The notes: generated by a model from the sequence alone, not told the origin. A stretch of DNA of 64,000 nt from Bacillota bacterium (GCA_036744005.1 DAINOJ010000013.1:10-64009); one strand, 5' to 3'. Positions 649-47,751 are shown, counted from the first letter of the stretch. Numbers and translations are program-made.

Positions 649-1983
649 ATGCCGAAAATAATAAGAAAAATACCGCAAAAGACGCGATTGGAACCACCCA
701 AAAAGGTCGCTGCCTATGCGCGTGTTTCGTCTGGAAAGGATGCCATGCTCCACTCGCTATCTTCACAGGTTAGCTATTACAGTAGATTCATACAAAGCCA
801 CGCAGAGTGGCTTTATGTAGGCGTTTATTCTGACGAAGCACTGAGCGGTACGAAGGACAACCGAACCGGGTTCCAAAAACTTCTCGCAGACTGCCGTTCT
901 GGAAAGGTGAACATGATACTGACCAAGTCCATCTCTCGCTTTGCCCGGAACACGGTGACCTTGCTGGAAACCGTCCGCGAGCTCAAGTCGTTGGAGGTGG
1001 ATGTTTTTTTTGAGGAGCAGAGCATCCATACGCTGAGTGCTGAGGGCGAGTTAATGCTGACCATACTTGCATCCTACGCGCAGGAAGAAAGCTTATCCGC
1101 TAGTGAAAATCAAAAATGGCGCGTTCGTAAGGGCTTTGAAAACGGAGAATTGCTCAATTGGCGGTTCCTGTTCGGGTATAGCATTACGAAGGTTGGAATT
1201 GAGATCGATACCACCACTGCGCCGATTGTTCGCGAAATATTTACCCGCGTTATCGACGGAGTGTCCTTAGGAGTGATTAGTAGGAGTCTAAACAGCCGAG
1301 GTGTTTCAGGTGAGCTTGGTGGCAAATGGTGTACCCAGCGTATTCGCGAAATAATTAGTAATGAGAAATATACGGGAAGTGCCATGCTTCAAAAGCACTA
1401 CAGAAATAACCATCTAGAGAAAAAGAAATGCCGTAACACAGGTGAGTTACCCATGTTCTTTGCGGAAGAAACACATCATGCGATCATAGACAAGGAAACC
1501 TTCCTTGTAGCAAATGCTATTTTAAAGGGAATGCAGGAATCAGTCAAAAACAGATCGCGACCACAGAAAAGTGAGTTCACAGGTAAAATCCACTGCCCCT
1601 ACTGTGGGAAAAATTTTAAGCGAAACATCGGTAAATGCACCGTGGGTTGGAACTGCTCCACTTTTCTCGCCAAAGGTAAAACGTATTGTCATGGCAAAAA
1701 AATACCCGAAGCAACCCTACAGGCCATATGTGCCGAGGTTCTTGTAATGGAAACCTACAACTCAGTTATCTTCCAAGAGAGAGTTGAGCGTATTGAAGCT
1801 TCGGAAGACAATTATTTGCTTTTTGTTTTCAAAGACGGTAGCACAGTTGAGCGCACCTGGGCTGACCGCTCACGGCGGGAAAGCTGGACAGCACAAATGA
1901 AGGTAGCAGCAACCGAGCGAATACGCAGCCAAAGGGGGAAAAAACATGCCAAGAGTAACGACAATACCAGCGACAAAAAATAA
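649..1983 (+). CDS. large serine recombinase (resolvase + recombinase + Zn-ribbon domains)
   Basis: VAAYARVSS catalytic motif, LTKSISRFARN, Zn ribbon CPYCG...WNC; RBS AAGGAGGTG. Confidence 0.95.
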   Translation: MPKIIRKIPQKTRLEPPKKVAAYARVSSGKDAMLHSLSSQVSYYSRFIQSHAEWLYVGVYSDEALSGTKDNRTGFQKLLADCRSGKVNMILTKSISRFARNTVTLLETVRELKSLEVDVFFEEQSIHTLSAEGELMLTILASYAQEESLSASENQKWRVRKGFENGELLNWRFLFGYSITKVGIEIDTTTAPIVREIFTRVIDGVSLGVISRSLNSRGVSGELGGKWCTQRIREIISNEKYTGSAMLQKHYRNNHLEKKKCRNTGELPMFFAEETHHAIIDKETFLVANAILKGMQESVKNRSRPQKSEFTGKIHCPYCGKNFKRNIGKCTVGWNCSTFLAKGKTYCHGKKIPEATLQAICAEVLVMETYNSVIFQERVERIEASEDNYLLFVFKDGSTVERTWADRSRRESWTAQMKVAATERIRSQRGKKHAKSNDNTSDKK

Positions 1984-3517
1984 GTTCACTGCACTGCCAA
2001 ACTCAATCAATGCAAAGCGACGCACTGCAGGGTATGCTCGTGTTTCCACGGATAAGGACGAGCAGTTTACCAGTTATGAGGCACAAGTCGATTATTACAC
2101 CAAATACATTCAATCCCGAGAGGACTGGGAGTTCGTAAAGGTTTATACGGATGAGGGGATTTCTGCTTTGAATACGAAACACCGGGAAGGCTTTCAACAG
2201 ATGGTGCGAGATGCCATGGATGGCAAGATAGACCTCATCGTAACAAAATCGGTCAGCCGATTTGCGAGAAACACAGTAGACAGCCTGGTTACCATACGCA
2301 AGCTGAAGGAGAAAGGGGTGGAGTGTTATTTTGAGAAAGAAAACATCTTCACCTTTGATGGTAAAGGCGAGCTGCTTCTCACCATTATGAGTTCTCTGGC
2401 ACAGGAAGAAAGCCGTTCCATTTCAGAAAATGTCACGTGGGGCCATCGCAAACGATTCTCAGATGGCAAGGTCAGCGTCGGTTACTCTCAATTTCTCGGG
2501 TTTACTAAGGGCGAGGATGGAAACCTCAAAGTAGTGCCGGAGCAAGCCGAAACGGTACGACTCATCTATAAGATGTTCCTTGAGGGAAGAACCACACAGG
2601 GCATAGCCAATTACCTTATGGAACACGGCATTCTCAGCCCTGCTAGAAAGAAGACATGGCGGTCATCCACAGTTGCTAGTATCCTCACCAATGAGAAATA
2701 TAGGGGCGATGCACTGCTCCAGAAACGGTTTACCGTTGACTTTTTAACGAAAGAACTACGGGTAAATAATGGTGAAGTACCCCAATATTATGTAGAAAAT
2801 TCACATGAAGCCATTATCGCTCCTGAGGAATATGAAATGGTGCAAGGAGAAATGGCACGGCGTAAGGATCTGGGCAGAGCATACAGCGATAAGGCGTTTC
2901 ACAGTAAAATCATCTGCGGAGAATGTGGTGGTTTCTATGGCCGAAAGATCTGGCATTCCACGGATGAATATAGAAGTGTGATCTTCCAGTGCAATCAGAA
3001 ATTCAAAAACGAGAATAAGTGCACCACACCCAAACTCAGCGAGGAAGAAATCAAACAGCGATTCCTTAAAGCCTACAATGACTTGATGGGCAATCGTTCT
3101 TCGGTGCTTGCTGATTGTGAGCTTATCCGTCAGGTGCTCTGTGAGACCACGACGCTTGATGCCGAATTGCAACACGAGCAAGATGAAATGGTGATTATGT
3201 CAGAGCTCATGCATGCACACATAAAAAAGAATGCGTCCGTTGCTCAGTCGCAGGAAGCCTACGCACTGGAAACAGAACGCATTGAGAAACGCTATAACAC
3301 CGCACTGGAACATTACAATGCTCTAGAAGTAGAGAAAGAGAAGAGGATGCAGAAGAGTAAGGAAATTAGCATTTTCATCACAACGTTGAAAAAACAACCA
3401 CTAACCGTAATGGAATGGAACGATCGACTTTGGATTACACTACTTGACACTGCCACCGTTAATAGAGAAGGTGAGATCGTATTCAAGTTTAAAAATGGTG
3501 TGTTGATGACTGTATAA
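1946..3517 (+). CDS. second large serine recombinase
   Basis: TAGYARVST, VTKSVSRFARN, CGECG...FQC Zn ribbon, C-terminal coiled coil; overlaps the first recombinase. Confidence 0.95.
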   Translation: MPRVTTIPATKNKFTALPNSINAKRRTAGYARVSTDKDEQFTSYEAQVDYYTKYIQSREDWEFVKVYTDEGISALNTKHREGFQQMVRDAMDGKIDLIVTKSVSRFARNTVDSLVTIRKLKEKGVECYFEKENIFTFDGKGELLLTIMSSLAQEESRSISENVTWGHRKRFSDGKVSVGYSQFLGFTKGEDGNLKVVPEQAETVRLIYKMFLEGRTTQGIANYLMEHGILSPARKKTWRSSTVASILTNEKYRGDALLQKRFTVDFLTKELRVNNGEVPQYYVENSHEAIIAPEEYEMVQGEMARRKDLGRAYSDKAFHSKIICGECGGFYGRKIWHSTDEYRSVIFQCNQKFKNENKCTTPKLSEEEIKQRFLKAYNDLMGNRSSVLADCELIRQVLCETTTLDAELQHEQDEMVIMSELMHAHIKKNASVAQSQEAYALETERIEKRYNTALEHYNALEVEKEKRMQKSKEISIFITTLKKQPLTVMEWNDRLWITLLDTATVNREGEIVFKFKNGVLMTV

Positions 3518-3703: not shown

Positions 3704-4960
3704 CTAGTTTACAATTTGTTTTATGTACAAAGGTAATAAGTCATTCTCAATGTAGTTGAAAGCATCAATATGGCAATCATTATATCCACAATCTCCCGAT
3801 AAATTCCTTTGAAGATGGCAGCCACCATGACACAGGGGTAAATACTTACAATCTTGACATCTGGAAGGTATGTCTCTGGTTAATTGTTTATAAGATTTTA
3901 TTTGCAGATTCCCGTCTTTTATATAACCAAAATCAGCATCGTCCACTCCGACACCGTTAAAACATTTATATACTTTACAATCCGGACCAACAACAAAACT
4001 CGAATCCGACTCACCCAAGCAAATGATCGAACTCACTGGATTTGGTATTTTGAAACCAAGTTGCAGAGACTTTTCAAAAAGCGATTTTTGATTATCAAAT
4101 TCCTGATTCAATACACTACACTGGTTATATAGATATGTATCTTCCACAAGATGAGCAAAATATACACAAACCCCAGTTTTATTAATGATTAAAGCACCTA
4201 GTTCATCAAGTGCTTTCGAAGCAAAATCGAGATTTCCCTTTGGATAATTAATTCGAATATCGAGCGGGATGTTGTTCTTTACCAACAGATTAGCAACATT
4301 AATCAAGTTGTCATAAGATCCTTGCTTGACTTTATTATGGTTTTCCTTACAACCATCAAAAGTCAACTGAACACCTTTAACAGGTAATTTCTTTAAATCA
4401 TTTAGAACGGTCTCGTTGATCAGGGTGCCATTTGTTATAAATTTGAATCCGTAATTTTTGATTCTGCTCTTGCTTAAAACTTTGCTCACTTCCCATACTG
4501 GGTCCATATTTAAAAATGGCTCCCCACCGATGATATTGACCATTATCCTGTCAAATGCCGATGCTTTTAACCAGTTCTCCAACCATAATGTTACAGACTT
4601 GGTTTTGTTTTCGTCTAAACGAGAGCGGCTTTTCATTGGATTCTGAATACAATAATAACAAGACAGATTGCATTCCATTGTTGTCACTAGCGTTAGAGCA
4701 CCAGCTTTATTTGTATAGGTAGATTTGTTGTAAAAGTATTTTAACTTATAAAAGTCTTCTAGGTGGTCTTCAACAATGTATCCATAGCTAAAAAGTTTTT
4801 TCTGTAGGTCACTTGATAGCCGGTTAATGTGATTATGAATAATCAGGTCATATTCGTCACTTGCTATCGATATAATGCTTTGATTAATGTATGAGAATAA
4901 AAACACCTTGTTCGGGAAATTTGGAAGTATAATTGCTGAACAGTAATTGCTTAATAGGAT
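3704..4960 (-). CDS. radical SAM/SPASM peptide maturase A
   Basis: CNLSCYYC (CxxxCxxC), IIGGEPF, SPASM cysteines (CLGE...VYKC; CQDCKYLPLCHGGC). Start uncertain: GGAGGT is followed 6 nt later by in-frame ATC at 4960; the track's TTG at 4978 lies upstream of this RBS. Confidence 0.9.
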   Translation of the reverse strand: MLLSNYCSAIILPNFPNKVFLFSYINQSIISIASDEYDLIIHNHINRLSSDLQKKLFSYGYIVEDHLEDFYKLKYFYNKSTYTNKAGALTLVTTMECNLSCYYCIQNPMKSRSRLDENKTKSVTLWLENWLKASAFDRIMVNIIGGEPFLNMDPVWEVSKVLSKSRIKNYGFKFITNGTLINETVLNDLKKLPVKGVQLTFDGCKENHNKVKQGSYDNLINVANLLVKNNIPLDIRINYPKGNLDFASKALDELGALIINKTGVCVYFAHLVEDTYLYNQCSVLNQEFDNQKSLFEKSLQLGFKIPNPVSSIICLGESDSSFVVGPDCKVYKCFNGVGVDDADFGYIKDGNLQIKSYKQLTRDIPSRCQDCKYLPLCHGGCHLQRNLSGDCGYNDCHIDAFNYIENDLLPLYIKQIVN

Positions 4961-5009
4961 GTGATTACCTCCCTTCAAAGATAAGTATTATTTAAAGGGA
5001 ACTCTATCA

Positions 5010-5111
5010 TTAAAAAGGGCAATCTACAAAAAGATTAATCATGTTGCAACAGCATAAATCTATATCTACCGGTCCATCAACTATTAATAGGAAACCTTCT
5101 TTGATAATCAT
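5010..5111 (-). CDS. putative RiPP precursor peptide A, 33 aa MIIKEGFLLIVDGPVDIDLCCCNMINLFVDCPF
   Basis: Translated by hand: RBS GAGAGGAGGA (5126-5117), ATG 5111, TAA 5012-5010, TATAAT at 5151-5146; directly upstream of rSAM A on the same strand. Confidence 0.75.
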   Translation of the reverse strand: MIIKEGFLLIVDGPVDIDLCCCNMINLFVDCPF

Positions 5112-5183
5112 TAAAATCCTCCTCTCTATTATTTAGTCAAGTCTTATTATACGAGAAAACCGCTAATGACTTACAAATAATGT

Positions 5184-6110
5184 TTAGTTTGTGAACCTTT
5201 GTAAACGTTTCTCAAATTTTTTTCTCGCTTGTTGTGAATCATAACCGTTTTTAGAGAATTCTTCGGGCAGCCAATCAATTGAATAAGTTATGAGTTCCAA
5301 AATTAGTTTTGTATCCATTTCCTTAAGTAGAATACGATACAGCATTTCATGAGCACATATAATGATTAGACTTGAATAATTTCTTCTAGATTTCAGAATC
5401 TTCCAAAGTGTTTCACGTGCCAAATCTATCTTTCCAGATCTCCATTGGCACTCAGCAAGTAGAATATCCAAGTTCTGAGACGGATAGTTTTTTTGAACCT
5501 CTTCACATAATTTAAGTGCTGAGTTGCTCTGGCCTGTAACTAAGTAACCAAAAATAAGGTTATAACTAGATTGTAATGTGGGATTTAAATCTGCCTTTGA
5601 TTTAAGTTCATCTAAAACGTCATATGTACCGTAATACAATATCTGCAATAAAATTTTCTGATTATGAATTTGAAACAGTTTTCCTTGATCAAGATCACTA
5701 ACTTCATTTATCAGTTCGTCGATGCGAGTAATTAAGTTATGAGACTTGTGAAGTAAATGAGTTATTTCTATAGAGATTAATCTAAACTCCATTTCGTCGT
5801 CCATTTTCGCTTCGCCATCGAGCTTAACAAGGTCTTGTACTTTTTCATATTCATCTAAATCTAAATCAAAATAGTACCTTGAGATAGATTTTTTGATTTG
5901 TTCCTTATTGCTATACATCATTATGTTATCAATGGTCGTATTTAATACGGATGCCAAAACAGGCAACAATTCACTTGCTGGAAGAGTTTTTCCTTGTTCC
6001 CAATTATAAACAGTAGCAAGGGATACCCCCGTCTTCTCTGCTAGATCGTTTGGGGTTAAATCTCTATCTTCTCTTAATTCCCGAATTTTATTTCCAATGT
6101 TTTGTTTCAT
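5184..6110 (-). CDS. XRE-family HTH regulator with helical/TPR-like C-terminal domain (Rgg/RNPP-like architecture)
   Basis: IGNKIRELREDRDLTPNDLAEKTGVSLATVYNWEQG HTH, then about 240 aa rich in helices; RBS AAGGAGG before ATG 6110. Confidence 0.8.
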   Translation of the reverse strand: MKQNIGNKIRELREDRDLTPNDLAEKTGVSLATVYNWEQGKTLPASELLPVLASVLNTTIDNIMMYSNKEQIKKSISRYYFDLDLDEYEKVQDLVKLDGEAKMDDEMEFRLISIEITHLLHKSHNLITRIDELINEVSDLDQGKLFQIHNQKILLQILYYGTYDVLDELKSKADLNPTLQSSYNLIFGYLVTGQSNSALKLCEEVQKNYPSQNLDILLAECQWRSGKIDLARETLWKILKSRRNYSSLIIICAHEMLYRILLKEMDTKLILELITYSIDWLPEEFSKNGYDSQQARKKFEKRLQRFTN

Positions 6111-6310
6111 ATATAACCTCCTTAAACAAAATAGAATATTCTTCAAAATCAGCTTGAATCCCTTCTTTTATAGAAAGTTCAAAAGTATATAAACTGCTCA
6201 AAACTCGAATAATAGTTAGTATAAATGAGTAGTTGGAGAAATGAGTTTATGAACTAATAGTAGGTGAAGAAAGGTTTTAGATAATTATAGAAAAATGGGG
6301 TAATATGAAC

Positions 6311-6338
6311 ATTCAATGTATGATAACATACATTGAAT
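6311..6338. promoter_or_regulatory. 12-bp perfect inverted repeat, candidate operator
   Basis: ATTCAATGTATG-ataa-CATACATTGAAT in the divergent intergenic region. Confidence 0.5.
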
Positions 6339-6470
6339 TATACCATTAATGTTGATAAATTTTTTTATCTCTTGAGTCTGTCTTATTGACATCGATCCAG
6401 CCATTGAATATTACGATGATAATATCAATCATTGCCTAACCGCGGTAAAACATAAAAAATCTTATGAGTT

Positions 6471-6486
6471 TTCTAATATATTAGAA
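6471..6486. promoter_or_regulatory. 16-bp perfect palindrome, candidate activator site
   Basis: TTCTAATATATTAGAA, about 45 nt upstream of TATAAT at 6530-6535, which has no consensus -35. Confidence 0.4.
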
Positions 6487-6556
6487 GATTTTAAAACATG
6501 TTTTTGTGGAGTTCTCTCGTCTTGTGTTTTATAATCATAATGAAGGAGGTGAAAAT

Positions 6557-6697
6557 ATGAAACTTATTAGGCTTAATTCTAACGCGAATTCATCTACAAG
6601 TCAATGCTTTACAAACACCTGCCCCACCAATTGCTCCTGTGTTTCGTTTTACCCAAGTTGCCCACCAGATTGTACTTCAGTCAACACCCAACAGTAG
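6557..6697 (+). CDS. putative RiPP precursor peptide B, 46 aa with six Cys (MKLIRLNSNANSSTSQCFTNTCPTNCSCVSFYPSCPPDCTSVNTQQ)
   Basis: Strong RBS GAAGGAGGTG then ATG 6557; first gene of the operon containing rSAM B; Cys-free leader and Cys/Ser/Thr-rich core. Confidence 0.85.
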   Translation: MKLIRLNSNANSSTSQCFTNTCPTNCSCVSFYPSCPPDCTSVNTQQ

Positions 6698-6702
6698 TTT
6701 TA

Positions 6703-6780
6703 TTTTAGGTTTGTATGTTTGAAACCTAAAACTGACTTTCTAATTTGCTTGGGGTAGCTTTTGGCTACCCTTATATTTTT
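6703..6780 (+). terminator. tandem hairpins after precursor B
   Basis: TTTTAGGTTT/AAACCTAAAA (6703-6731) and GGGTAGC/GCTACCC (6752-6770) followed by a T-rich run. Confidence 0.6.
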
Positions 6781-6791
6781 AGGAGGAGAAT

Positions 6792-7241
6792 TTGCTAGAA
6801 ACCAGATTAACAAAATCAAGGCAGGAATTTGAAGAATTATTAGAATATATGTATAAGAATAAATTATTCATTGCTGATAGATTCAAAACCGAATGCATAG
6901 AATCTTTTCAGGATTTTATAAAGAATTTGCTCTGTTATTCAATAATTGAAACAGAAAATGAAAGTGTGGTTGGATGCATTGTAATCTTAAATCTTGATTC
7001 TTGGAACCATAGAGCTGAAATTAGATTTACCTATTATTTATATATTGAAGACACTGCCATTCTTGATATTTTCAATAAGTTTTTCTTTTTTGAGCTAAAT
7101 CTACATAGAATATATTGGATAACAGAGAAATGCAAAGTTTCTGCTTTTGAGAAGCTCCATGCATTTTTTGAAGGCGAATATATACAAGATAGCGTTAAGT
7201 ATTGTTTCTATTCGATGGTTGGGAAAAATCGTGTTTACTAA
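6792..7241 (+). CDS. RimJ/RimL-type GNAT-fold protein 1 (divergent)
   Basis: NLDSWNHRAEIRF and ELNLHRIYW...FFEG segments; RBS AGGAGG, TTG start. Confidence 0.6.
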   Translation: MLETRLTKSRQEFEELLEYMYKNKLFIADRFKTECIESFQDFIKNLLCYSIIETENESVVGCIVILNLDSWNHRAEIRFTYYLYIEDTAILDIFNKFFFFELNLHRIYWITEKCKVSAFEKLHAFFEGEYIQDSVKYCFYSMVGKNRVY

Positions 7242-7292
7242 AAAAGCAATTTTATTATAATATTAAATAGACTAAACTCATAACTCAGTGAG

Positions 7293-7742
7293 GTGTTTTT
7301 GTTGATTAATTTGGTGAATTTAAGCGAGTTAAATAAAATCGTCTTAGGAAATCGTAGGGCTTGGGTATATTCGCAATTTCCGCGAATCCCTACAGGGTAT
7401 GTTGAACGGCCTAATTTCCCACTCTCTGCTCTAAAATGGCAAGGTAAACATGGAAATATCCTCCTCATAATAATGGATGTTGAATTAACTTATGGCCAAG
7501 CTGAATTATGCTTTTTTGACTTTATAGGTAAAATCACAAGCGATGATGTTAAAAGATTTTGTGACTATTTTGGTAATTCGTTTGCTATAAGTCAGATAAG
7601 AACAACCATTCCAAAAAACGACGATTATATTGATGTTTTGCTTTCTGCGGGATTTAACCATGTTGCTTTCATGCAAGATCATATTTGTATATCACTAAAC
7701 ACTTACATAAATGCAGAAATATTAAATTATAAACTGATGTGA
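7293..7742 (+). CDS. RimJ/RimL-type GNAT-fold protein 2 (divergent)
   Basis: YGQAELCF, VLLSAGFNHVAFMQDHI resemble the RimL-type C-terminal GF..E motif; sits inside the operon. Confidence 0.5.
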   Translation: MFLLINLVNLSELNKIVLGNRRAWVYSQFPRIPTGYVERPNFPLSALKWQGKHGNILLIIMDVELTYGQAELCFFDFIGKITSDDVKRFCDYFGNSFAISQIRTTIPKNDDYIDVLLSAGFNHVAFMQDHICISLNTYINAEILNYKLM

Positions 7743-7757
7743 AGGAGACTGGCATGA

Positions 7758-9065
7758 ATGAATTACTTCAATAATAGAAAAAGCAATTTTACTATCAGGC
7801 AAAAACTTAACGAAAAAGAAACTTTGATACATAATACAAGTTCAAATACGTTGATCATTGTTGAAAATGAAGTTTATGAAAGATTTGAAAAATGTAATTG
7901 GAGCATATCTGAGCAAGAACGTTGGATAGAAGGCGGTTTTCTTATCGAAGACGAATTAGATGAGAGGGAGGATTTACTAAATCGATTTATTAGTGCAAGA
8001 AACTATTCGGATTTATCGTTAACAATCTGTCCTACTCTGGGCTGCAATCTACGGTGCGGTTATTGTTATGAGGATTCACAAAGTAAAATTGAATTCATGA
8101 GCGATTCCGTTGCAGATGAAATAGTAAGCTACGTTGAAAAAAATAAATTTGAGAATTTAGTGTTGACGTGGTATGGCGGAGAACCACTATTAGCATTAAG
8201 TAGAATTTTAGAGTTGCAAGAAAGGTTAAAATCCAAAACAAATAAAATTATATCAAGCATGATAACTAATGGTGTCCTCCTTACTAAGAAGACTTTCGAC
8301 GATCTAATAGTAGCGGGAGTAGGGCGGTTTCAGATTACAATTGATGGATCGAAATTTTACCATGACCTAAGAAGAATCACACCTAGCGGCGGAGGGACTT
8401 TTGATGTAATTACTCAGAATCTTCGTGATATAAATTGCGATCCGAAATATCTATCAATAAGAGTAAACATTGATAAAGAAAATAAAGAAGGCTTCATATC
8501 TCTATTAGAGTATTTTGATGAAGACCCTATTCTACGCAAATACTTAAGTATAATTTACCCTGCTCCAGTTACAGCTTGGTCCATTCTGCCAAATAACTGG
8601 ACTGAAAAATGCTTGGGTAATAAAGAGTATGCAGAGTTTTATTTTGATCTAAGTGATTTAGTTTATGAGCGGTATAGTATTAATTTAGTAAAAATTCCAG
8701 AATCAAAAAATATGTATTGTGGTGCTACAGTAAAGAATCATTTTGTTATTGGTCCAAAAGGTGAATTATACAAATGCTATATAACTGTTGGTGATACCAG
8801 TACAATTGTAGGTTATATAAATGGTGAAAATAAAGATGTTCTAAATAAAGAGGAATTGAGATTTTGGGATCAATGGAACCCCTTTAATAATGATAAATGT
8901 TATAATTGTCAGTTTCTCCCTCTATGTATGGGTGGTTGTCCGGGCTTAACCCATATAGCCAAAAAAAACCATGAGGACCAATGTTTTCAAATGAAAAGTT
9001 ATTATATAGATACAGTATCAAGGTCAATCCGCGGTGACTTAAATGAAATTAATGCAAGCGAGTAG
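7758..9065 (+). CDS. radical SAM/SPASM peptide maturase B
   Basis: CNLRCGYC, WYGGEPLL, SPASM (YCGA...LYKC; CYNCQFLPLCMGGCP...C), N-terminal extension consistent with an RRE. Confidence 0.93.
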   Translation: MNYFNNRKSNFTIRQKLNEKETLIHNTSSNTLIIVENEVYERFEKCNWSISEQERWIEGGFLIEDELDEREDLLNRFISARNYSDLSLTICPTLGCNLRCGYCYEDSQSKIEFMSDSVADEIVSYVEKNKFENLVLTWYGGEPLLALSRILELQERLKSKTNKIISSMITNGVLLTKKTFDDLIVAGVGRFQITIDGSKFYHDLRRITPSGGGTFDVITQNLRDINCDPKYLSIRVNIDKENKEGFISLLEYFDEDPILRKYLSIIYPAPVTAWSILPNNWTEKCLGNKEYAEFYFDLSDLVYERYSINLVKIPESKNMYCGATVKNHFVIGPKGELYKCYITVGDTSTIVGYINGENKDVLNKEELRFWDQWNPFNNDKCYNCQFLPLCMGGCPGLTHIAKKNHEDQCFQMKSYYIDTVSRSIRGDLNEINASE

Positions 9066-9549
9066 TTACGATGAATTGCTAAGTATAGCAAAACTTTATG
9101 AAAAACCTGAATATCTGAAATTCGCTGCTCAAAGTAAATACACTAATACTCAGATTCTTATAACCATATTCGATGAAGAGGTAAGAAAAGGTAATAACTT
9201 TTATTATGTAGGATACTATAAAAAAGAACCTGCAGTTGTTTTTGCTTTGAGAAACGTTTCAAGGTATAATAAAAGTGCTGAACTTCATATTGTTTTTATA
9301 ATTGAAAATGAAAGTTATAGATTTCTCTATATCGGTATCAAAGAGATGTACAGAATTGCATTTGATGAGCTACGTCTGAGAAAGCTTTATGGTCAAACAC
9401 CAAAATGGAATAACGGTTTAATAGGAATTTTATTGCTTACAGGAGCTGCTATAGTTGGGGAATTTGAGAAAGGAATATTTCACGATGGTATTTATAGTCC
9501 AAATGTGATATTGGAAATATTGAATCAAGATAATAAGTTTAGAAAGTGA
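9043..9549 (+). CDS. RimJ/RimL-type GNAT-fold protein 3
   Basis: VSRYNKSAELHI, AFDELRLRKLYGQTPKWN, GEFEKGIFHDGIY; overlaps the rSAM B stop. Confidence 0.7.
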   Translation: MKLMQASSYDELLSIAKLYEKPEYLKFAAQSKYTNTQILITIFDEEVRKGNNFYYVGYYKKEPAVVFALRNVSRYNKSAELHIVFIIENESYRFLYIGIKEMYRIAFDELRLRKLYGQTPKWNNGLIGILLLTGAAIVGEFEKGIFHDGIYSPNVILEILNQDNKFRK

Positions 9550-9550
9550 G

Positions 9551-10012
9551 ATGACTAATATGCTCATTATGCAAACAGATCGTCAAGAGGTTCTTAACAA
9601 ATGGAAAAGTCGGTTATCTATAAACGATTTAAGTGATAATGAAATCGGTGATTATTATGGAACCTTAGACAATATTAAGGTTATGATAAGACCTTTAATA
9701 GTTAACAATAAATCTGAAGTTGACATAGAAAACGTTAATTTTTTTGTTACAACTAATCATGATCTTAATGAAAATCAGATTAGTTTAGTCCTTGAAGGTG
9801 CTAAAGCCTATTTGCCTATTGTTTATCGATGGTTAGAAGATGAAAAGAGAATCCACAACAATATTCAAATTGTTAATCAGTTAGAACGTGAGTCAACGAT
9901 AAGAAAATTAACAGTCGAAATACCTAGTAAAATCGAACCGGATTTTCTAATAGGTATAAATGCGTTGACTAGGTATATTTTAGCGAGCGAGTTTTATGGC
10001 AAACAGGTATAG
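9551..10012 (+). CDS. hypothetical protein in the RiPP operon
   Basis: 153-aa ORF starting 2 nt after the previous stop; no recognised motif. Confidence 0.6.
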   Translation: MTNMLIMQTDRQEVLNKWKSRLSINDLSDNEIGDYYGTLDNIKVMIRPLIVNNKSEVDIENVNFFVTTNHDLNENQISLVLEGAKAYLPIVYRWLEDEKRIHNNIQIVNQLERESTIRKLTVEIPSKIEPDFLIGINALTRYILASEFYGKQV

Positions 10013-10167
10013 TATTAAAAATTTAATGTTTTTAGAAACACTATATTAACCCTTTCATTTTAACATTAGATTCTAAAGAAGTATGAAGGCAAAATGATTT
10101 TTTGAGTATGCTTCGAACTACAAATTCAAGACGTATAAACTTTTGAAATTTCGAGGAGGCGCATATT

Positions 10168-10848
10168 ATGGGAAACCAAATTGTAGCAATCAAAGGGGAT
10201 AGATTACGCCGGGTCTTCCATCTGGGAGATCAGGAAGTTCGTGCATTAGATGAGATCAACATTGAAGTGTATCAGGGGGAGCTTGTCATGCTCCTTGGCC
10301 CTTCGGGTTCGGGAAAAACAACTCTTTTGCATACCTTGTCTGGTTTAGATGCACCGGATCGAGGAGAAGTTTTCGTAGACGACGTGTCAATCTATAAACT
10401 GAATGATAATAAGTTATCTCATTTACGTAGTCGGTCTTTCGGTTTCGTTTTTCAGTCGTTTAACTTATTACCAAACCTGACTGCCTTAGAAAATGTGCAG
10501 ATTCCGTTACGCATAACAGGGCAAGACAATCCAGTCGAGAAATCAATGGAAATGCTCAAGCGTGTGGGCTTGGGCGACCGGGCACACCACCGACCAGGAC
10601 AACTCTCGGGAGGAGAACAACAGCGAGTCACCGTAGCTCGAGCCTTAGTATCAAAACCAAAAATTGTCTTTGCCGATGAACCGACCGGAAACTTAGATTC
10701 CGTGACCAGCATGGAGATCATGAATCTGCTGAAGGAAATGGTCCATGAAAACAACTCGGCATGTTTAATGGTTACTCACAATGCTGAAATGGTTCCGTTA
10801 GCAAATCGGGTTTTATACTTAAGAGACGGGAAAATGGTAAATAAGTAA
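10168..10848 (+). CDS. ABC transporter ATP-binding subunit (LolD/MacB-type)
   Basis: GPSGSGKT, LSGGEQQR, ADEPTGNLD, VTH. Confidence 0.95.
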   Translation: MGNQIVAIKGDRLRRVFHLGDQEVRALDEINIEVYQGELVMLLGPSGSGKTTLLHTLSGLDAPDRGEVFVDDVSIYKLNDNKLSHLRSRSFGFVFQSFNLLPNLTALENVQIPLRITGQDNPVEKSMEMLKRVGLGDRAHHRPGQLSGGEQQRVTVARALVSKPKIVFADEPTGNLDSVTSMEIMNLLKEMVHENNSACLMVTHNAEMVPLANRVLYLRDGKMVNK

Positions 10849-10869
10849 AACCGAAGGGAGAAAATTCCG

Positions 10870-11943
10870 ATGTTCAAACTCTCGGTAAAACTCATTCAAT
10901 GGAATCTCACCAGGAATCGACTGCAGTTATTGATTATGGTATTAGCGGTGATAGGTTCTTTAAGCAGCTATGTACTTTTAGGTACAGCACTAAACGAAAT
11001 GTCAGATAAAGTTGTGGATGTGCAAAGGTCGGACTGGCCATTTGACATTGAGATTATTGGTAATATTGATGATGAAGAAATGAAAAAAATCATGAGCATA
11101 CCAGGTGTGAAATATATGGAAGAAGTATACACAACTGAAGCTTTTGTTTATTCTAGCGAAATGGAGTTTTTGCTGATACCTAAAGAAGATACTAAAGTAA
11201 TCATTGAAATGGAAGCTGGAAATCTACCGAACAATGCGAACGAGGTCGCAATATCGGGGAAATTAGCAGTAGCTTATCAATTAAATGTTGGAGATCGTTT
11301 AAAAGTATTGCCGGGGATATCTGTTCTTCCTATTGATTACGAAATATCTGGAATAGTGAGTAGTAAAAAAGGTGTCGTTACAAAACTACTACTCAATGAA
11401 GAAGGATACCTTAGACAAACATCGCTTTTTGGTAAAAAAGCAATACAGTTGGATGGGAAAGTCGATATTGGTTTTGTTGTAGACGAATTAAAGAAGGTCG
11501 ACGCCGGATACCTCATTAAAAAATATGAAGAGAATTATACCAATACAAAAAACAGTCTAGGGTTGTCCGATACTATGGTAATGAGTTTACGTTTCTTAAT
11601 ATTGGGAATCACAGCAACCTCGTTAGCAGTTTTGCTCTATATTGGTCAGCGTAGTGGTGCATATCAGACAGGTGTCTTATTAGCTATGGGAATAAAAAAA
11701 CCATGGTTAATGCTTCCTACCATAAGCCAAACGACAATCACTTTCCTCATTGGATTTTTAGCAACGTCTGCCATTTTACCAATCGTATCGAAATCCTTGG
11801 GATTAGTAACAGAACCATTCGATATCTTGTGGACGTTAGTAAAAGATATAGCGGTTTATTATGGAGTTGGCATGCTCAGTACGTTAATCATTACTATGCA
11901 ATTTTTAGGAACACCTATTCCTAAATTACTCAAAGACTCTTAG
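10870..11943 (+). CDS. ABC permease, FtsX/MacB-like
   Basis: N-terminal TM, large extracellular domain, three C-terminal TMs, GVLLAMG motif. Confidence 0.85.
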   Translation: MFKLSVKLIQWNLTRNRLQLLIMVLAVIGSLSSYVLLGTALNEMSDKVVDVQRSDWPFDIEIIGNIDDEEMKKIMSIPGVKYMEEVYTTEAFVYSSEMEFLLIPKEDTKVIIEMEAGNLPNNANEVAISGKLAVAYQLNVGDRLKVLPGISVLPIDYEISGIVSSKKGVVTKLLLNEEGYLRQTSLFGKKAIQLDGKVDIGFVVDELKKVDAGYLIKKYEENYTNTKNSLGLSDTMVMSLRFLILGITATSLAVLLYIGQRSGAYQTGVLLAMGIKKPWLMLPTISQTTITFLIGFLATSAILPIVSKSLGLVTEPFDILWTLVKDIAVYYGVGMLSTLIITMQFLGTPIPKLLKDS

Positions 11944-11962
11944 ATACTGAGGAGGTGATCCT

Positions 11963-13177
11963 ATGCTTTGGATGACATTCGTGTCTTTTCGGCGAAATCT
12001 TCATAATTACTCCTTAGCCATTATTGGGTTAGCTCTTGCAGTCTTAGTGAGCTGCATAGGATTGAGTGGGTTGGGCATGCTTCAGGATTTCGCCTTAGTA
12101 CCTTTACGATTTTTGTTTGGAGAAAATGTTATTATTGCCGATGCAAGAACCGAAATCAAGACCACATCTACAATGATTTATGCTGATCCACTCGATATTA
12201 AACCATTCTCGGCAACGCTTGTAAACTCTTTTTTAGAAGAAGTAGCACCTGGCACCAAACTGGAAAAGGTTCTCATTGCTCCATATAGGATGCGAGATGG
12301 GTGGAGCTATGTTGCCGGAAGAATGAACCCAGATGAGAAAATAAGAAAATACATATATAGTTCGGATGTAACAGAAGGAGTTTTTAGCGACAGTTATGAA
12401 AAAATCTATCTTGCAACCGATCAGAGGTTTAAAAACAATAATGGAGAGATTAGCAGCCCTCTGTTGTACTTAGGTGCTGGAGATTATATGAATTTAACCG
12501 TACCAACGATTACTACCGAAAAAAACGGTTATGATTGGTCGATACCAAATCTGGCAAAAAAACAAGTTCAGGTTCAAAGTTTATATGACTCCTCCAGTGT
12601 TATGTATATGGTTGATTGGGTCAAGTTGGATGTTCTTCAGCAACTCGTTGGTGGGAATGAACCAGTATCTTTTATTTCTGTTGAATGTCCTTTAAACAAA
12701 ATGGACGAATTAAAGAATACTCTGGTGACTCGAATGGAAGAGGAAAATTTTCCTTTGCAGGTTTGGACAATTTATGATGTCGGGGAATTACTGTACGGGG
12801 ACTTTGAGCGATTTGAAGTGATGGCTGACTATTATGTTCCGGTAATGATGTTTGTTTCCGTTCTTATTGTGCTCGTCAATTCGATTGCATTGACGTTATC
12901 GCGCCGTAAAGAGCTTGCATTAATGCGTATCGTTGGATTCAGCCAAATACAGATACAAATGATGTTTGTTGCTGAATGTATCATAATTGCACTTCTTGGA
13001 GGTTTATTGGGAACCGGGATCGCTGGGTTTATTTCGATGCAATTCACTAACACATTTAGTGTTAATTGGTTACCGTATATCATTGCTTTAGTTTCTACTG
13101 CGGTTGTAAGTACGATTACTACCATTTTGCTGACCAAAGGAAGTTTAGCAAGCATTATGAGAAATCCGGTTGAGTAA
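11963..13177 (+). CDS. ABC permease, FtsX/MacB-like
   Basis: RRKELALMRIVGFS FtsX motif, same topology as the previous permease. Confidence 0.9.
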   Translation: MLWMTFVSFRRNLHNYSLAIIGLALAVLVSCIGLSGLGMLQDFALVPLRFLFGENVIIADARTEIKTTSTMIYADPLDIKPFSATLVNSFLEEVAPGTKLEKVLIAPYRMRDGWSYVAGRMNPDEKIRKYIYSSDVTEGVFSDSYEKIYLATDQRFKNNNGEISSPLLYLGAGDYMNLTVPTITTEKNGYDWSIPNLAKKQVQVQSLYDSSSVMYMVDWVKLDVLQQLVGGNEPVSFISVECPLNKMDELKNTLVTRMEEENFPLQVWTIYDVGELLYGDFERFEVMADYYVPVMMFVSVLIVLVNSIALTLSRRKELALMRIVGFSQIQIQMMFVAECIIIALLGGLLGTGIAGFISMQFTNTFSVNWLPYIIALVSTAVVSTITTILLTKGSLASIMRNPVE

Positions 13178-13273
13178 AATATTGAGCTTGGGCTTCTCCC
13201 TTCGATGTTTTCTTACCGAAAAAACAAAAACACATATAGATACAATAGTGTATATAAACCCGGAGGTGGTATT

Positions 13274-14107
13274 ATCAAGATCAAAATTCTAGTTGATAGT
13301 TCATGCGATATGCCGAGAGAGTATATTAGAAAATGGAATATTGGGGTGGCTCCACTTTTTGTTCAATTAGGTAAAAATAGCTTTCAAGATGGTGTTAACC
13401 TTAGCACTGAAGAATTCTATCGATGGTGCAGAACACACACGGAAGTCCCTCAAACAGCCCAACCGTCCGTTGGAATTTGTGAAAAGCTGATCCGTGAGAG
13501 CTTAGAGGAACATGATCATGTCATCTGTTTCACAGTATCTTCTTCGCTATCCAGCACATTACAAGCTTTCCGTATAGCTTCAGAAGAGTATAAGGAAAGT
13601 GTTACCGTTTTTGATACATTATCTGTGTCTCTTGGAATAACACTTTTAGTTCTACATGCAGTTGAGTTAATTGAAAAAGGTTCTGATATCGATGAAATTC
13701 TTTTACGGCTTCAGGAAGCACGCAAACACCAAAAAGTTATCATGTCTTTACAGACGTTGGAATATGCTGTTAAAGGAGGTCGTGTCACCCGATGGTCACC
13801 TGTTGATTCAGATATATTATCAATTAAGCCAATTTTACATATTGATTGCAATGGATATGCAAAAGTATTAGAGAAAGTTCGTAGCGAACGTCTTGCTTTT
13901 CGCTTTTTAATCAATACCATGAAAGATACGTTTGGCAATACCCAACCATTTAGGATTGGTATAGCTCATGGAGATAGTGAAGATCAGGCAAGGAAATTTA
14001 TGCAGATTGTTAGAGAGGAATTGAACCCTAAAGAGATTATTTTTTCGCAAATAGGTCCTGTCATTGGATCTCATATCGCCCCAGGTGCTTTATTGGTCTC
14101 ATTTTAA
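13274..14107 (+). CDS. DegV/FakB family fatty-acid-binding protein
   Basis: KIKILVDSSCDMP, PQTAQPS, SSSLSST, VFDTLSVSLG, GGRV, IKPIL, IAHG, IGSHIAPG. Start uncertain: GGAGGT 13262-13267 then ATC 13274; the track's ATG at 13205 has no RBS. Confidence 0.9.
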   Translation: MKIKILVDSSCDMPREYIRKWNIGVAPLFVQLGKNSFQDGVNLSTEEFYRWCRTHTEVPQTAQPSVGICEKLIRESLEEHDHVICFTVSSSLSSTLQAFRIASEEYKESVTVFDTLSVSLGITLLVLHAVELIEKGSDIDEILLRLQEARKHQKVIMSLQTLEYAVKGGRVTRWSPVDSDILSIKPILHIDCNGYAKVLEKVRSERLAFRFLINTMKDTFGNTQPFRIGIAHGDSEDQARKFMQIVREELNPKEIIFSQIGPVIGSHIAPGALLVSF

Positions 14108-14441: not shown

Positions 14442-14620
14442 CGTGTGCACAAAGCAAACGGAACAAACGGGAATAAGGCTACCAGGTGCATTTTGTATCA
14501 AACTCGTGTCCTTCTCCAAAAAAATCAGCACACCAACGCGGTGTGCTGATTTTTTTGGTGGAGGGAACCCGTAGCCAATGTTTGCATTGGCGAAGCTCTG
14601 GCAATTAAAAGCGTTTGCGA
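14442..14620. repeat. structured repeat element, copy 1
   Basis: 14442-14573 aligns ungapped to 33596-33727 with 8 mismatches in 132 nt; 19-bp perfect hairpin 14516-14558; 7-bp hairpin plus GAAGC at 14574-14596. Confidence 0.9.
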
Positions 14621-28469: not shown

Positions 28470-30464
28470 ATGAGTAGTATTCAGAACAATAATAATACGA
28501 TTTCATTGCTTGACGACGACTGCTCTTTCGTCAGCTCTTCAGGAGGCAAGCTCGAGGTCGTTAAACTCACTTATGAGTCAGCCGAGTCCATTACTTGGCA
28601 AGACCTCTTTTCTGGTTTCGACACACTTTATGCGATCACTTTCTCGTCCGGCGTCAATTTCGTGTATAAGCTTCTCGGAATGTTTGACTACGCCGAAATC
28701 ATTTTCGGCTGTGAAGCTGTTATGTCCTATACACTTCAAGAAGTTATGGCGTATCAGGGCATACTCATTAAACGAATGCGAGACGGTATATCGGAATCTC
28801 AATCTCAGCTGCTTTCACGTATGGATAACGGCAGCGTTAAATTCTATGTATCCCGGACAAAACTCTCTCATGAAAAGCTGTACCTCCTCGCAGCTGAAGA
28901 CGGGCGCAAGCGTGTTATAATGGGCTCTGCCAACATGTCTTATAATGCTTTTGGCGGAATACAGCGTGAAAATATCTGCTATATGGACGGGGATGAAGCG
29001 TATGACTGGTACATGGGTTCATTCTCAGAACTCCGGGAATGCAGTTCAGACACGATAAAGCGAAGTGCCCTCGAACGAGCTGATCTGAATGAAAACATTG
29101 ATGAACTGCCAGTGGCCGGATCGATAAAGGCTAATAAAGTCCTTGTCATAGAGCCGGTTAAGGAGAACACAGAGGAAGTCAAATTCGTACTAGAAACTCA
29201 TAGGCGTGCAGGTACACTTACCCCAATGCTACCAAAGGCAGATAAAAAAACTGGTAAGCTTACCGTGGTGACGGATACCATCGTGAAGCTGCGTCGGCAA
29301 CTTATAAGCGAAGCGACAAAAGAAAAAGAACTGCGAAGTGAGTATCCGCAGCTCGTGATTGATGCATTCCAAGGCACTGCAGCCTTGAATGCAGATCTGC
29401 TTGACCTCAACCCTGACCGGGATGCCGTCGGGCAGGATGTTTCGCTCTTTCTTAGATACATGGAAGGGTATAACAAGTTTCACGGCGATTACGTTGGTAT
29501 GCAGTATCGCTATTTTGAATTTGCCAACTGGTTTTTCTGTTCTCCTTTTATGGGTGTCATGCGGGATATGGCGGCTCGCTATGATCAGAACCGGCTGCCG
29601 TATCCTGTATTCGGTCTCGTTTACGGTCAGAGCAAGGCCGGTAAAACGAGCTTTCTGGAAACTCTGCTGAAAATGATGATTGGTCAGAAGCCAAAGGTAT
29701 CGGCACCAGACTTTACCAGATCCAGCATTGAGAATCTCAAACGCACTGTTCAGGGTGCCCCGATCATTGTTGATGATCTTACAAATACCCGTTTCAGCCA
29801 ACATGCTATTGAAACAATAAAGAACGACGACTTCGGCGTAAGTGAACATCTTATCAATTATTCGGCTGTTGTTATCAGTGCCAATGAGGATGTGAAAGCT
29901 GTTGCTCCAGAAGTGATTCGGCGTACGGTGATTTGCCGTGTGGAAGCAGGCCTCACAAATACCGAGGTAATGAAAAGTAATGTGGTGCGCTCAGTACAGC
30001 AGAAAATCGGTACTGCCTTCTACAGAGAGTATTTGCGTCGCATGCTTGCTCTGATCCCGGATTTGATTGAGGCATTGAAAGCAGACAACGATGATAATGC
30101 CCCTGACATTCTCAAGTGTTCTTCCGAAGTCATTTGCGAGATTATTGGCGAGCACACAGAGGAGATGCCTGAATATGTTCGACGTCTCTCTCTCGATAAT
30201 TATTTCAGTGAGCAAGTAACTGGAAAATACGCTATTAAGACGGTTCAGAACGCCTGGAAAACCAGTCGAAAATCATTCGTAATCTCGCCAAGGAATAATG
30301 AGTTGAGGTATAATGCCGGCGCTACATATGAAGCTGATCGTTTGATGAAGGAACTCCCTGAGACTCTGGAAGCACATAAATCCCGAGAATGGGTTGTGAT
30401 GAATTTAGACGAAGCACGACACTTCTTCGAGATCAACTTCAAAAAGCCACTGTTCCCTTGGTAA
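28470..30464 (+). CDS. PLD-family nuclease domain fused to a P-loop NTPase
   Basis: SHEKLY...VIMGSANMS (PLD HxK...GSxN), GQSKAGKT Walker A, IIVDD Walker B. Confidence 0.8.
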   Translation: MSSIQNNNNTISLLDDDCSFVSSSGGKLEVVKLTYESAESITWQDLFSGFDTLYAITFSSGVNFVYKLLGMFDYAEIIFGCEAVMSYTLQEVMAYQGILIKRMRDGISESQSQLLSRMDNGSVKFYVSRTKLSHEKLYLLAAEDGRKRVIMGSANMSYNAFGGIQRENICYMDGDEAYDWYMGSFSELRECSSDTIKRSALERADLNENIDELPVAGSIKANKVLVIEPVKENTEEVKFVLETHRRAGTLTPMLPKADKKTGKLTVVTDTIVKLRRQLISEATKEKELRSEYPQLVIDAFQGTAALNADLLDLNPDRDAVGQDVSLFLRYMEGYNKFHGDYVGMQYRYFEFANWFFCSPFMGVMRDMAARYDQNRLPYPVFGLVYGQSKAGKTSFLETLLKMMIGQKPKVSAPDFTRSSIENLKRTVQGAPIIVDDLTNTRFSQHAIETIKNDDFGVSEHLINYSAVVISANEDVKAVAPEVIRRTVICRVEAGLTNTEVMKSNVVRSVQQKIGTAFYREYLRRMLALIPDLIEALKADNDDNAPDILKCSSEVICEIIGEHTEEMPEYVRRLSLDNYFSEQVTGKYAIKTVQNAWKTSRKSFVISPRNNELRYNAGATYEADRLMKELPETLEAHKSREWVVMNLDEARHFFEINFKKPLFPW

Positions 30465-31630: not shown

Positions 31631-31985
31631 TGTAAGTGGTAATATAAAGTATACCATTTAGGGACATATGAAATGGGCCAAATCTCGCCACAAAGTATAC
31701 CTGTGCTCGCCAGAAAAGGGACCACCTTTAGCCTGTAATGTGTTAAGCTTTCTGAGAGAAGAAAACTCAGAAAGGAACTTAACAGATGAAGGAGTTCAAG
31801 ATGTATAGAAAATTAAAGACCTATTGCTCAAGGGTTTTTCCGAAAGAAAAACTTCAGAGATGTTAGGTATAAATCGGAAAACCGTGAACAGGTATCATAA
31901 CATGACCCTGGATGAAGACGTGGACAAAACAGCACGACCTCTTATTCGTATCATTAAAACCTTCTTAAATACAGTATTATTTTAG
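31631..31985 (+). mobile_element. istA: IS21-family remnant (left end plus frameshifted istA N-terminus)
   Basis: Begins TGTAAGTGGTAATATAAAGTATACCA with a repeated AAAGTATACC; ATG 31801 then, after a 1-nt deletion, IKDLLLKGFSERKTSEMLGINRKTVNRYHNMTLDE (IstA-type HTH); truncated. Confidence 0.65.
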
Positions 31986-33032: not shown

Positions 33033-33044
33033 AATGCCTCCTAT

Positions 33045-33104
33045 ACTATAAAAAAGCCCCCGGGCCCGAAGGACACCGGAGGACAAACTAGCAATATTCT
33101 TTGT
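33045..33104 (-). ncRNA. candidate abiF-like leader/antitoxin RNA
   Basis: GC-rich hairpin GTCCTCCGGTGTCCTTCGGGCCCGGGGGC followed by a U-run, between a consensus promoter and the Abi RBS. Confidence 0.55.
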
Positions 33105-33110
33105 AACCCT

Positions 33111-33138
33111 ATTATAGCACACCCGTGAGTTTTGTCAA
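33111..33138 (-). promoter_or_regulatory. sigma70/sigmaA promoter of the Abi locus
   Basis: TTGACA-16 nt-TATAAT with extended -10 TG. Confidence 0.85.
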
Positions 33139-33595: not shown

Positions 33596-33775
33596 CGTGT
33601 GCACAAAGCAAACGGAACAAACGGGAGCAAGGCTACCGGGTGCATTTTGTATTAAACTCATGTCCTTTTCCAATAAAATCAGCACACCAACGCGGTGTGC
33701 TGATTTTATTGGTGGAGGGAACCCGTAAGCATTCCGCAGGAATGCGAAGCAAGCGCACTTGTTAGCGTTTTCGAA
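33596..33775. repeat. structured repeat element, copy 2
   Basis: Direct repeat of 14442-14573; 19-bp hairpin 33670-33712 with a compensatory pair; GCATTCC-gca-GGAATGC plus GAAGC. Confidence 0.9.
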
Positions 33776-47412: not shown

Positions 47413-47751
47413 ATGAATAAAAGGAGTGTCGTCATTCTTCCTAAAACACAGTCGATTCTCAACACTATGGGTGAGCAAATAAAAATGGCAAGACTCCGGC
47501 GAAAGCTCTCGGTAGATCTTGTTGCTGAGAGAGCCGGTATAAGCAGGGCCTCTTTATGGTCGGTTGAGAAAGGTTCACCCTCTGTATCGATGGGAATCTA
47601 CGCAGCTGTACTTCATGCTTTGAATAATATGGACAAAGACTTGCTTCTTATTGCTAAGGACGATGATCTTGGTAGAAAGTTACAAGACCTCGATCTACCG
47701 GTCAGAAAACGTTCGCCAAAAAAGCAAGGTGATACAAATGAGAAATCATGA
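47413..47751 (+). CDS. XRE HTH antitoxin (HipB-like)
   Basis: MGEQIKMARLRRKLSVDLVAERAGISRASLWSVEKGSPSV; overlaps the hipA start. Confidence 0.88.
   Translation: MNKRSVVILPKTQSILNTMGEQIKMARLRRKLSVDLVAERAGISRASLWSVEKGSPSVSMGIYAAVLHALNNMDKDLLLIAKDDDLGRKLQDLDLPVRKRSPKKQGDTNEKS

Follow-up and report, generated by a model that had tools for sequence, protein, structure and literature searches.

Two kinds of described gene cluster come closest to the locus reported here. In the ranthipeptide and sactipeptide clusters (PapB, CteB, TIGR04463, CefB and Clo7bot), a radical S-adenosylmethionine (rSAM)/SPASM maturase with an N-terminal extension is encoded beside a Cys-rich precursor peptide, with an ABC transporter in the same operon. 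Lipidation by GNAT enzymes of peptides that are made on the ribosome and modified after translation (RiPPs) is known from the goadvionins, in which the acyl carrier protein (ACP)-dependent GNAT GdvG transfers an ACP-bound acyl unit onto the RiPP, and from the selidamides (PMC8784127). The DNA analysed here, which we refer to as the window, is a stretch of 64,000 nucleotides (nt) from a Bacillota bacterium (GCA_036744005.1 DAINOJ010000013.1:10-64009). Within it, positions 6557-13177 encode a Cys-rich peptide (precursor B), an rSAM maturase (rSAM-B), four small proteins designated D, E, G and H, and an ABC ATPase with two FtsX-type permeases, and a DegV-family gene follows (Table 1). In our view, to which we assign a probability of roughly 0.55, this region is an uncommon yet conserved cassette for a radical-SAM RiPP, possibly with acyl transfer by its GNAT-like proteins, and the DegV gene is a bystander.

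The cassette would function like a sactipeptide or ranthipeptide cluster and shares with these the SPASM maturase with its extension, the adjoining Cys-rich precursor and the ABC transporter, yet rSAM-B is a member of none of the curated maturase families. It differs from such clusters in the addition of D, E, G and H and in a transporter of the MacB/LolD type, where such clusters have an exporter that contains a peptidase. With the goadvionin and selidamide clusters it has in common GNAT-fold proteins within a RiPP cluster and, in a sister lineage described below, a carrier protein alongside them, as in the goadvionins. It differs from these in having no polyketide synthase (PKS), fatty-acid synthase (FAS) or acyl-activating gene, in a core peptide that would be rSAM-modified and is Cys-rich where theirs are avionin, proteusin or Nif11 peptides, and in three separate, very degenerate GNAT-like proteins, the window copies of which have lost the donor loop. 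The comparison with GdvG, PhaN and KprN is drawn from cluster content. Searches of the literature turned up no account of GNAT-like accessory proteins in clusters for rSAM-modified Cys-rich peptides. Clusters for radical-SAM peptides are known, as is the lipidation of peptides by GNATs; the literature searched does not describe a cassette in which a SPASM maturase for a Cys-rich peptide is combined with three orphan GNAT-like accessory proteins, a fourth small protein and, in one lineage, an ACP of its own.

Close relatives of rSAM-B are very scarce. Among 5.8 billion clusters only two were found (97 and 53% identity), and the rest are at most 39% identical. The 53% relative (L009) is encoded on a 1.7 kb contig between a gene for an E-like protein and the N-terminus of a G-like one. 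Searches by phmmer and family hidden Markov models of 80 genomic loci that encode remote relatives of rSAM-B detected no homologue of D, E, G or H, from which we conclude that the accessory set is specific to a narrow rSAM clade. The decisive relatives were reached through P0248, a distant homologue of G, and cluster look-ups of its neighbours. They include four contigs (L100-L103) attributed to Ca. Fermentithermobacillaceae, with about 55-57% G+C, on which the order is precursor, D (155 residues), E (160), rSAM (442), G (175), H (151), a PP-binding protein (97), ABC ATPase, FtsX and FtsX. In L100 the cassette spans 6745-13805.

Precursor B (MKLIRLNSNANSSTSQ-CFTNTCPTNCSCVSFYPSCPPDCTSVNTQQ) contains six cysteines in the pattern Cx4Cx3CxC. 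The same spacing is found in the 42-residue precursor of L100-L103 (MKLLVLPTRPNRSYEP-CPTHECTTACPCISHDPCEPVNKAPR; peptide MKLLVLPTRPNRSYEPCPTHECTTACPCISHDPCEPVNKAPR), to which it is 42% identical. Between the window and L100 the identities are 30% for D, 26% for E (E-value 1.5e-21), 39% for the rSAM protein (1e-116), 28% for G (1.5e-24), 65% for the ABC ATPase, and 41 and 39% for the two permeases. The second permease (FtsX2) is 39-40% identical to its counterparts in L100 and in a further relative, L095, and the L100 counterpart of permease 1 has a weak MacB_PCD match. Orthologues of H are collinear in L095 and L100 (21-30% identity; 30% over 60 residues in L100), and those of E lie directly upstream of the rSAM gene in both L009 (46%) and L100 (26%). 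Gene order, precursor cysteine pattern and proteins of the cassette therefore all recur, as judged by these alignments, in the Ca. Fermentithermobacillaceae contigs.

The assignment of rSAM-B as a radical SAM/SPASM maturase is well founded at the level of sequence. It matches Pfam Radical_SAM (2e-16) and SPASM, its motif C96xxxC100xxC103 and seven C-terminal SPASM cysteines are invariant across 18 relatives, and a Cys-rich precursor is encoded next to it. It also carries an N-terminal extension of about 90 residues; in such maturases these extensions usually bind the leader peptide. Its scores fall below every curated equivalog cutoff (TIGR04463, 250.7 against 525 bits; PapB, 126.6 against 340; CefB, 203 against 600).

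The small proteins are far more diverged. D, E and G gave no match to Pfam, NCBIfam or PHROG models at an E-value of 0.1 or better, except for NCBIfam SpeG with G (E-value 0.046; 13.5 bits, where the cutoff is 218), and no curated GNAT model is reached at its gathering score by any of the three. A positive control from the window (45715-46227) matched Acetyltransf_3 at 3e-34 (119 bits). A word-index search with G returned G alone. An exhaustive phmmer search of 1.84 billion representative proteins gave one true relative, P0248 (E-value 1.3e-13), and full-length alignments, at library-wide E-values of 7e-5 and 2.4e-4, with two proteins verified by Pfam as Acetyltransf_3; two further matches were to giant repetitive proteins and look spurious. 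A profile built from G orthologues only matched solved SpeG structures in the PDB (3.4e-8), and hhalign of the G profile against canonical GNATs gave 97.7% probability (E-value 2.4e-12). G is a GNAT by descent, by these profile comparisons, of a diverged SpeG/RimL type.

D is probably a GNAT as well. Its family profile matched PDB GNATs (8q6u/6erd, 1.1e-4; 1nsl, 0.023), and hhalign against canonical GNATs gave 88.7% probability (2.5e-6). The Foldseek top 50 for its AF2 model were all GNATs (E-value 1.4e-6, TM 0.57), in a model with a pLDDT of 56 for which the input alignment included GNAT rows. For E, a GNAT fold is not demonstrated. Its family profile had no PDB match and no significant match to the D, G or canonical GNAT profiles, hhalign with canonical GNATs reached an E-value of 0.008 across 29 columns only, and a poor single-sequence model (pLDDT 41) had a strand and helix order compatible with the β2-β3-β4-α3-β5-α4-β6-β7 core of a GNAT but no significant structural match. 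H matched no Pfam, NCBIfam or PHROG family and nothing in the PDB. Since BLAST comparisons among D, E, G and H revealed no significant similarity, the four are not recent paralogues. The first-pass annotation of this DNA had described three divergent RimL-type GNATs, a description that is borne out for G, is probable for D and finds no match in E. Among detectable relatives, the SpeG/RimL/RimJ proteins (Acetyltransf_3), including the immunity domain of MccE, stand closest to G and D in both profile and fold. Unlike these, G and D fall under the Pfam thresholds, lack the R/Q-x-x-G-x-G/A motif and have a genomic role tied to an rSAM maturase.

That motif is the acyl-CoA pyrophosphate loop of GNATs, which lies between β4 and α3 and normally holds the pantetheine pyrophosphate. 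At this position canonical GNATs read WHKGYA or RHQGYA, G of the sister lineage reads VWGSGL and window G reads ESYRFL, while in the D family the segment is deleted in both lineages. An intact acyl-CoA loop, which the first-pass annotation had thought worth looking for, is therefore wanting from window D and G, both of which, on this alignment, have lost the acyl-CoA/phosphopantetheine pyrophosphate loop. Sister-lineage G retains the G-x-G loop and scores 24.4 bits against Acetyltransf_3, for which the threshold is 25.4.

The sister cassettes (L095 and L100-L103) contain one extra gene, located between H and the ABC ATPase (10453-10746 in L100), that encodes an ACP. It has a Pfam PP-binding match (3e-9) and an LGLDSLD motif, its top NCBIfam matches are ACP models, and the source annotation is acyl carrier protein. 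Its start overlaps the stop of H by 4 nt, so that it is translationally coupled with H. No acyl-activating enzyme or phosphopantetheinyl transferase was found near it, and neither the window nor the sister cassette contains a ligase, FAS or PKS.

The transporter genes can also be found apart from the rest. In L096 (JGI Ga0334888_1000173, 5092-9477), a contig from a closer relative, the regulator that flanks the cassette is joined directly to ABC-FtsX-FtsX, regulator and transporter module each being 88% identical at the nt level to the window, and the precursor, D, E, rSAM, G, H and DegV are all missing. Over the module, homology with the window begins at 10156, 12 nt short of the start codon of the ABC gene, and ends at 13179, 2 nt past the FtsX2 stop. 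The module occupies a different genomic position, beside APH/AAA_14/Abi_2 genes that sit at 31.6-36.5 kb in the window. L096 shows that the modules are shuffled, and its regulator and transporter look like an orphan immunity module. In a separate comparison, L097 is 86% identical (nt) to the window over the ABC ATPase and 96-98% over the adjoining FtsX and DegV genes, a mosaic that suggests recombination inside the transporter operon.

The pathway that we propose would run as follows. The divergent XRE-TPR regulator would control the cassette, and rSAM-B would introduce Cys-derived thioether cross-links of the sactipeptide or ranthipeptide kind, by analogy with the TIGR04463, PapB and CefB-like families. 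The ABC-FtsX-FtsX module, the ATPase of which resembles LolD, DevA and DarD, may export the product, confer immunity or both, a role suggested by its retention with the regulator alone in L096. The GNAT-like set and H would together move an acyl group from a carrier protein to the peptide; G is the likely catalyst, and D, possibly along with E, would be its degenerate partner. In the sister lineage the dedicated ACP would donate the acyl group, whereas the donor in the window would be a housekeeping ACP, or none if the step has decayed. By analogy with the goadvionins, acyl transfer is the most likely single reading for the family as a whole, albeit one held tentatively and at less than even odds. 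For the window copy it is less likely still, because the ACP and the donor loop are both lacking. The stronger statement, that the family makes ACP-dependent acylated thioether peptides by means of a heteromer in which one GNAT subunit is active and two are degenerate, is possible but falls well short of an even chance. The acylated rSAM peptide that the first-pass annotation envisaged thus gains support from the sister ACP and the loop of sister G, and loses it in the window itself.

The DegV gene, to which that annotation had assigned the supply of the fatty acyl group, requires separate consideration. Its product is by sequence a full-length, bona fide member of the family (Pfam DegV, 1.4e-69 over residues 1-275 of 280; TIGR00762, 268 bits against a cutoff of 99.7), although below the FakB1 equivalog cutoff (145.7 against 350). 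DegV/FakB proteins bind fatty acids. Full-length as it is, this one has no conserved link to the cassette. It is not found in any of the syntenic relatives that cover its position (L095, L096 and L100-L103); in L095 and L100-L103 the next gene after FtsX2 encodes a convergent M14 peptidase. DegV lies within 10 kb at one of the 80 loci with remote rSAM-B relatives. The nearest homologues (67-69% identity, 277 residues) have an AAA ATPase/LPG-synthase/GNAT block on one side and an aldo-keto reductase gene on the other, and DegV stands next to the ABC genes solely in contigs that are 95-100% identical to the window. One contig with such a homologue shares a sample with the window's cluster, yet has no flank in common with the window. 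We ruled out that the window gene is the orthologue of these homologues with an island inserted beside it, as no flanking gene is shared.

The start of the gene is also unusual. The ATG of the homologues aligns with the ATC codon at 13274, which has a GGAGG 7 nt upstream. The ATG at 13205 is in frame in the window but has no ribosome-binding site (RBS), and it is out of frame in variants of 95-97% identity (L097-L099) owing to a 1 nt difference in an A-run. The true start is almost certainly the ATC codon, which makes the gap to FtsX2 96 nt and not 27 nt; the gene either relies on this rare start or is poorly translated. The co-oriented run does not stop at DegV, as had been thought, since the type 1 BREX genes beyond it are also on the plus strand. 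The absence from syntenic relatives, the boundary of L096 at FtsX2 and the unrelated contexts of the homologues all indicate a lineage-specific neighbour. It is very likely an ordinary fatty-acid-binding paralogue that lies downstream by chance and that the peptide pathway does not need, although read-through from the cassette may co-transcribe it. Co-occurrence of DegV with the rSAM/GNAT set, to which the first-pass annotation had looked for support, is not conserved in syntenic clusters, and on the side of synteny this is the outcome by which the proposal was to fall.

Several observations weigh against the interpretation that we favour. Using tblastn we found no ACP or ACP remnant in the window, either in the spacer between H and the ABC ATPase or elsewhere, and the window also has neither an acyl-activating enzyme nor a protease. 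The correlation between the presence of an ACP and a retained G-x-G loop in G is drawn from two lineages only. The alignment behind the structural model of D (pLDDT 56) included GNAT sequences. We infer both the type of cross-link and any acylation, and the acyl-transfer step in the window may be non-functional or may never have been catalytic, given that G and D are without the loop and that E is not detectably a GNAT. With regard to DegV, no terminator is predicted between FtsX2 and its gene, the gene is under purifying selection (pN/pS 0.23), and it is linked to the ABC genes in all of the 95-100% identical contigs, so a functional recruitment confined to this lineage is conceivable.

The alternative that survives best, and one that the first-pass annotation had also raised, is that D, E and G have no catalytic activity and are pseudo-enzymes, serving as GNAT-fold scaffolds or chaperones for the precursor, the rSAM protein or both, and that the sister ACP serves some other role. 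It stays in contention because the window has no ACP and its D and G have no loop. The loop deletion throughout the D family in both lineages agrees with it, as do the failure of every Pfam GNAT model to recognize D, E or G and the conservation around one enzyme of three different small partners with overlapping or tightly spaced genes. A partner for leader binding would, however, duplicate what rSAM-B appears to possess in its own N-terminal extension. Furthermore, an ACP gene inside the sister cassette needs a transferase, for which the GNAT-like proteins are the sole candidates, and sister G, with its G-x-G, comes close to the Acetyltransf_3 threshold. On balance we consider this explanation somewhat unlikely.

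A second alternative, likewise named in the first-pass annotation, is self-protection, in which acetylation by the GNAT-like proteins would inactivate the mature peptide within the producing cell. Protection of this kind against microcin C is given by the RimL-like domain of MccE, G and D fall in the RimL/SpeG branch of the GNATs, and immunity genes are common in bacteriocin loci. The idea is nevertheless improbable, as the acetyl-CoA loop is missing, L096 keeps the resistance-type genes (the ABC module and regulator) and none of D, E, G and H, and it is with the maturase, not the transporter, that the genes are interleaved and show translational coupling.

Delivery of a fatty acid by the FakB-like DegV for GNAT attachment to the peptide, which in its strongest form would mean that the window lineage lost its dedicated ACP and recruited a diverged DegV/FakB paralogue as the carrier feeding loop-less GNAT-fold enzymes, can claim the short same-strand gap with no predicted terminator, the retention of DegV under purifying selection in all near-identical contigs and the loss of the ACP kept by the sister lineage, but is highly improbable in either form given the absence of DegV from all syntenic relatives with a module boundary right after FtsX2, the ordinary chromosomal setting of its nearest homologues, the replacement of its canonical ATG by ATC, the lack of FakA or an activating enzyme among the window open reading frames (ORFs) scanned, and the lack of any mention of DegV in the top-ranked literature on DegV, RiPP, radical SAM and gene cluster. 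We know of no GNAT that accepts a FakB-bound or phosphate-activated acyl group. Such recruitment, if true, would provide the first case of a ribosomal peptide lipidated in a FakB-dependent manner.

The layout of the cassette and its surroundings is summarized in Table 1. The ORFs of D, E, rSAM-B, G and DegV were confirmed on the plus strand at the coordinates of the first-pass gene list, which had omitted H (9551-10012) and the ABC ATPase with its two permeases (10168-13177) between G and DegV. The start codon of E is probably a TTG at 7299 or 7302, and the start of G overlaps the end of rSAM-B by 23 nt. In a comparison of near-identical variants, pN/pS was 0.05-0.34 across all cassette genes (precursor B, 0.05; D, 0.20), which is indicative of purifying selection; the values of 0.18-0.34 mark the ORFs as real genes. 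The genes from D to H have a G+C content of 29-33%, the ABC genes one of 36-45% and DegV one of 38%, compared with about 42% for the remainder of the window. The E family had no match in scans of GTDB genomes, of JGI metagenomes or of viral contigs, and a scan of viral contigs with FtsX2 was likewise empty; with both viral-contig scans empty there is no sign of the cassette as phage cargo.

Table 1. Features of the peptide locus in the window, in the order of the cassette and then of the adjoining elements.
Feature	Position	Strand	Description
Precursor peptide B	6557-6697	+	46 residues, 6 Cys; GGAGGTG RBS upstream
D	6792-7241	+	149 residues; probable degenerate GNAT-fold protein; acyl-CoA loop deleted
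E	7293-7742	+	Conserved accessory protein of 147-149 residues
rSAM-B	7758-9065	+	Radical SAM/SPASM peptide maturase
G	9043-9549	+	168 residues; diverged SpeG/RimL-type GNAT
H	9551-10012	+	Conserved protein of 150-153 residues
ABC ATPase, LolD/MacB-type	10168-10848	+	Pfam ABC_tran 5.7e-34
Permease 1, FtsX/MacB-type	10870-11943	+	41% identity to L100 permease
Permease 2, FtsX-type	11963-13177	+	Pfam FtsX 2e-10; final gene of conserved cassette
DegV-family gene	13274-14107 (ORF opens 13205)	+	Adjoining lineage-specific neighbour
XRE-type HTH + TPR regulator	5184-6146	-	Pfam HTH_3 1.8e-12; weak TPR_19 match
33-residue Cys-rich peptide MIIKEGFLLIVDGPVDIDLCCCNMINLFVDCPF	5010-5111	-	From translation; gene call on all metagenome contigs
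rSAM-A, second radical SAM/SPASM maturase	3704-4978	-	Pfam Radical_SAM 3.6e-13
12-4-12 palindrome ATTCAATGTATG/CATACATTGAAT	6311-6338		From repeat search; 100% complementary
Hairpin + T-run, 9 pairs	6751-6771	+	Terminator-like site 3' of precursor gene

The regulator is transcribed divergently from the cassette, and it is this gene of which an 88% identical (nt) copy stands beside the ABC module in L096. The palindrome in the spacer between regulator and precursor is a candidate operator for it, and the hairpin behind the precursor gene may act as an attenuator or partial terminator that sets the ratio of precursor to enzymes. On the far side of the shared regulator is a second, unrelated pair, consisting of rSAM-A and the 33-residue peptide. 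rSAM-A has a geopeptide/CefB-like NCBIfam match (4e-47) that lies under the cutoffs, and it is not present in L096 or L100; it is part of the wider locus, outside the conserved cassette. The CCC-containing peptide is its likely substrate.

At the upstream end of the locus are two overlapping genes for large serine recombinases (649-3517). In the longer source contig (L001) these are preceded by phage lysis genes, namely an Amidase_2/SPOR endolysin and small phage-family ORFs (phrog_2308, SHOCT), and the recombinase and phage genes are probably the end of a prophage that abuts the peptide locus. Downstream of DegV, a 1.2 kb spacer with terminator hairpins leads to the type 1 BREX system, which begins at 15340. 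A 132 bp direct repeat, 94% identical and including a terminator hairpin, occurs at 14442-14573 and 33596-33727. The intervening 19 kb or so holds the BREX genes (BrxA at 15340 to BrxL at 28223), a PLD-family nuclease (28470-30464) and Abi_2 (31977-33122), and looks like a defence island that recombination between the repeats either inserted or is liable to act on. In its chromosomal part the window contains the canonical Acetyltransf_3 GNAT used above as the positive control, together with a gene for a HipA-like kinase (47651-48991). Rfam and tRNA scans of the window returned no matches.

If the ACP-GNAT step is real, the family would represent a class of acylated thioether peptides and would offer a minimal carrier-dependent module for lipidation. 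If the GNAT-like proteins are instead pseudo-enzymes, they would constitute a new kind of maturase partner. The locus also carries a caution for annotation: a co-oriented DegV gene beside a biosynthetic operon was here a neighbour and not a component, and this was revealed by distant synteny alone.

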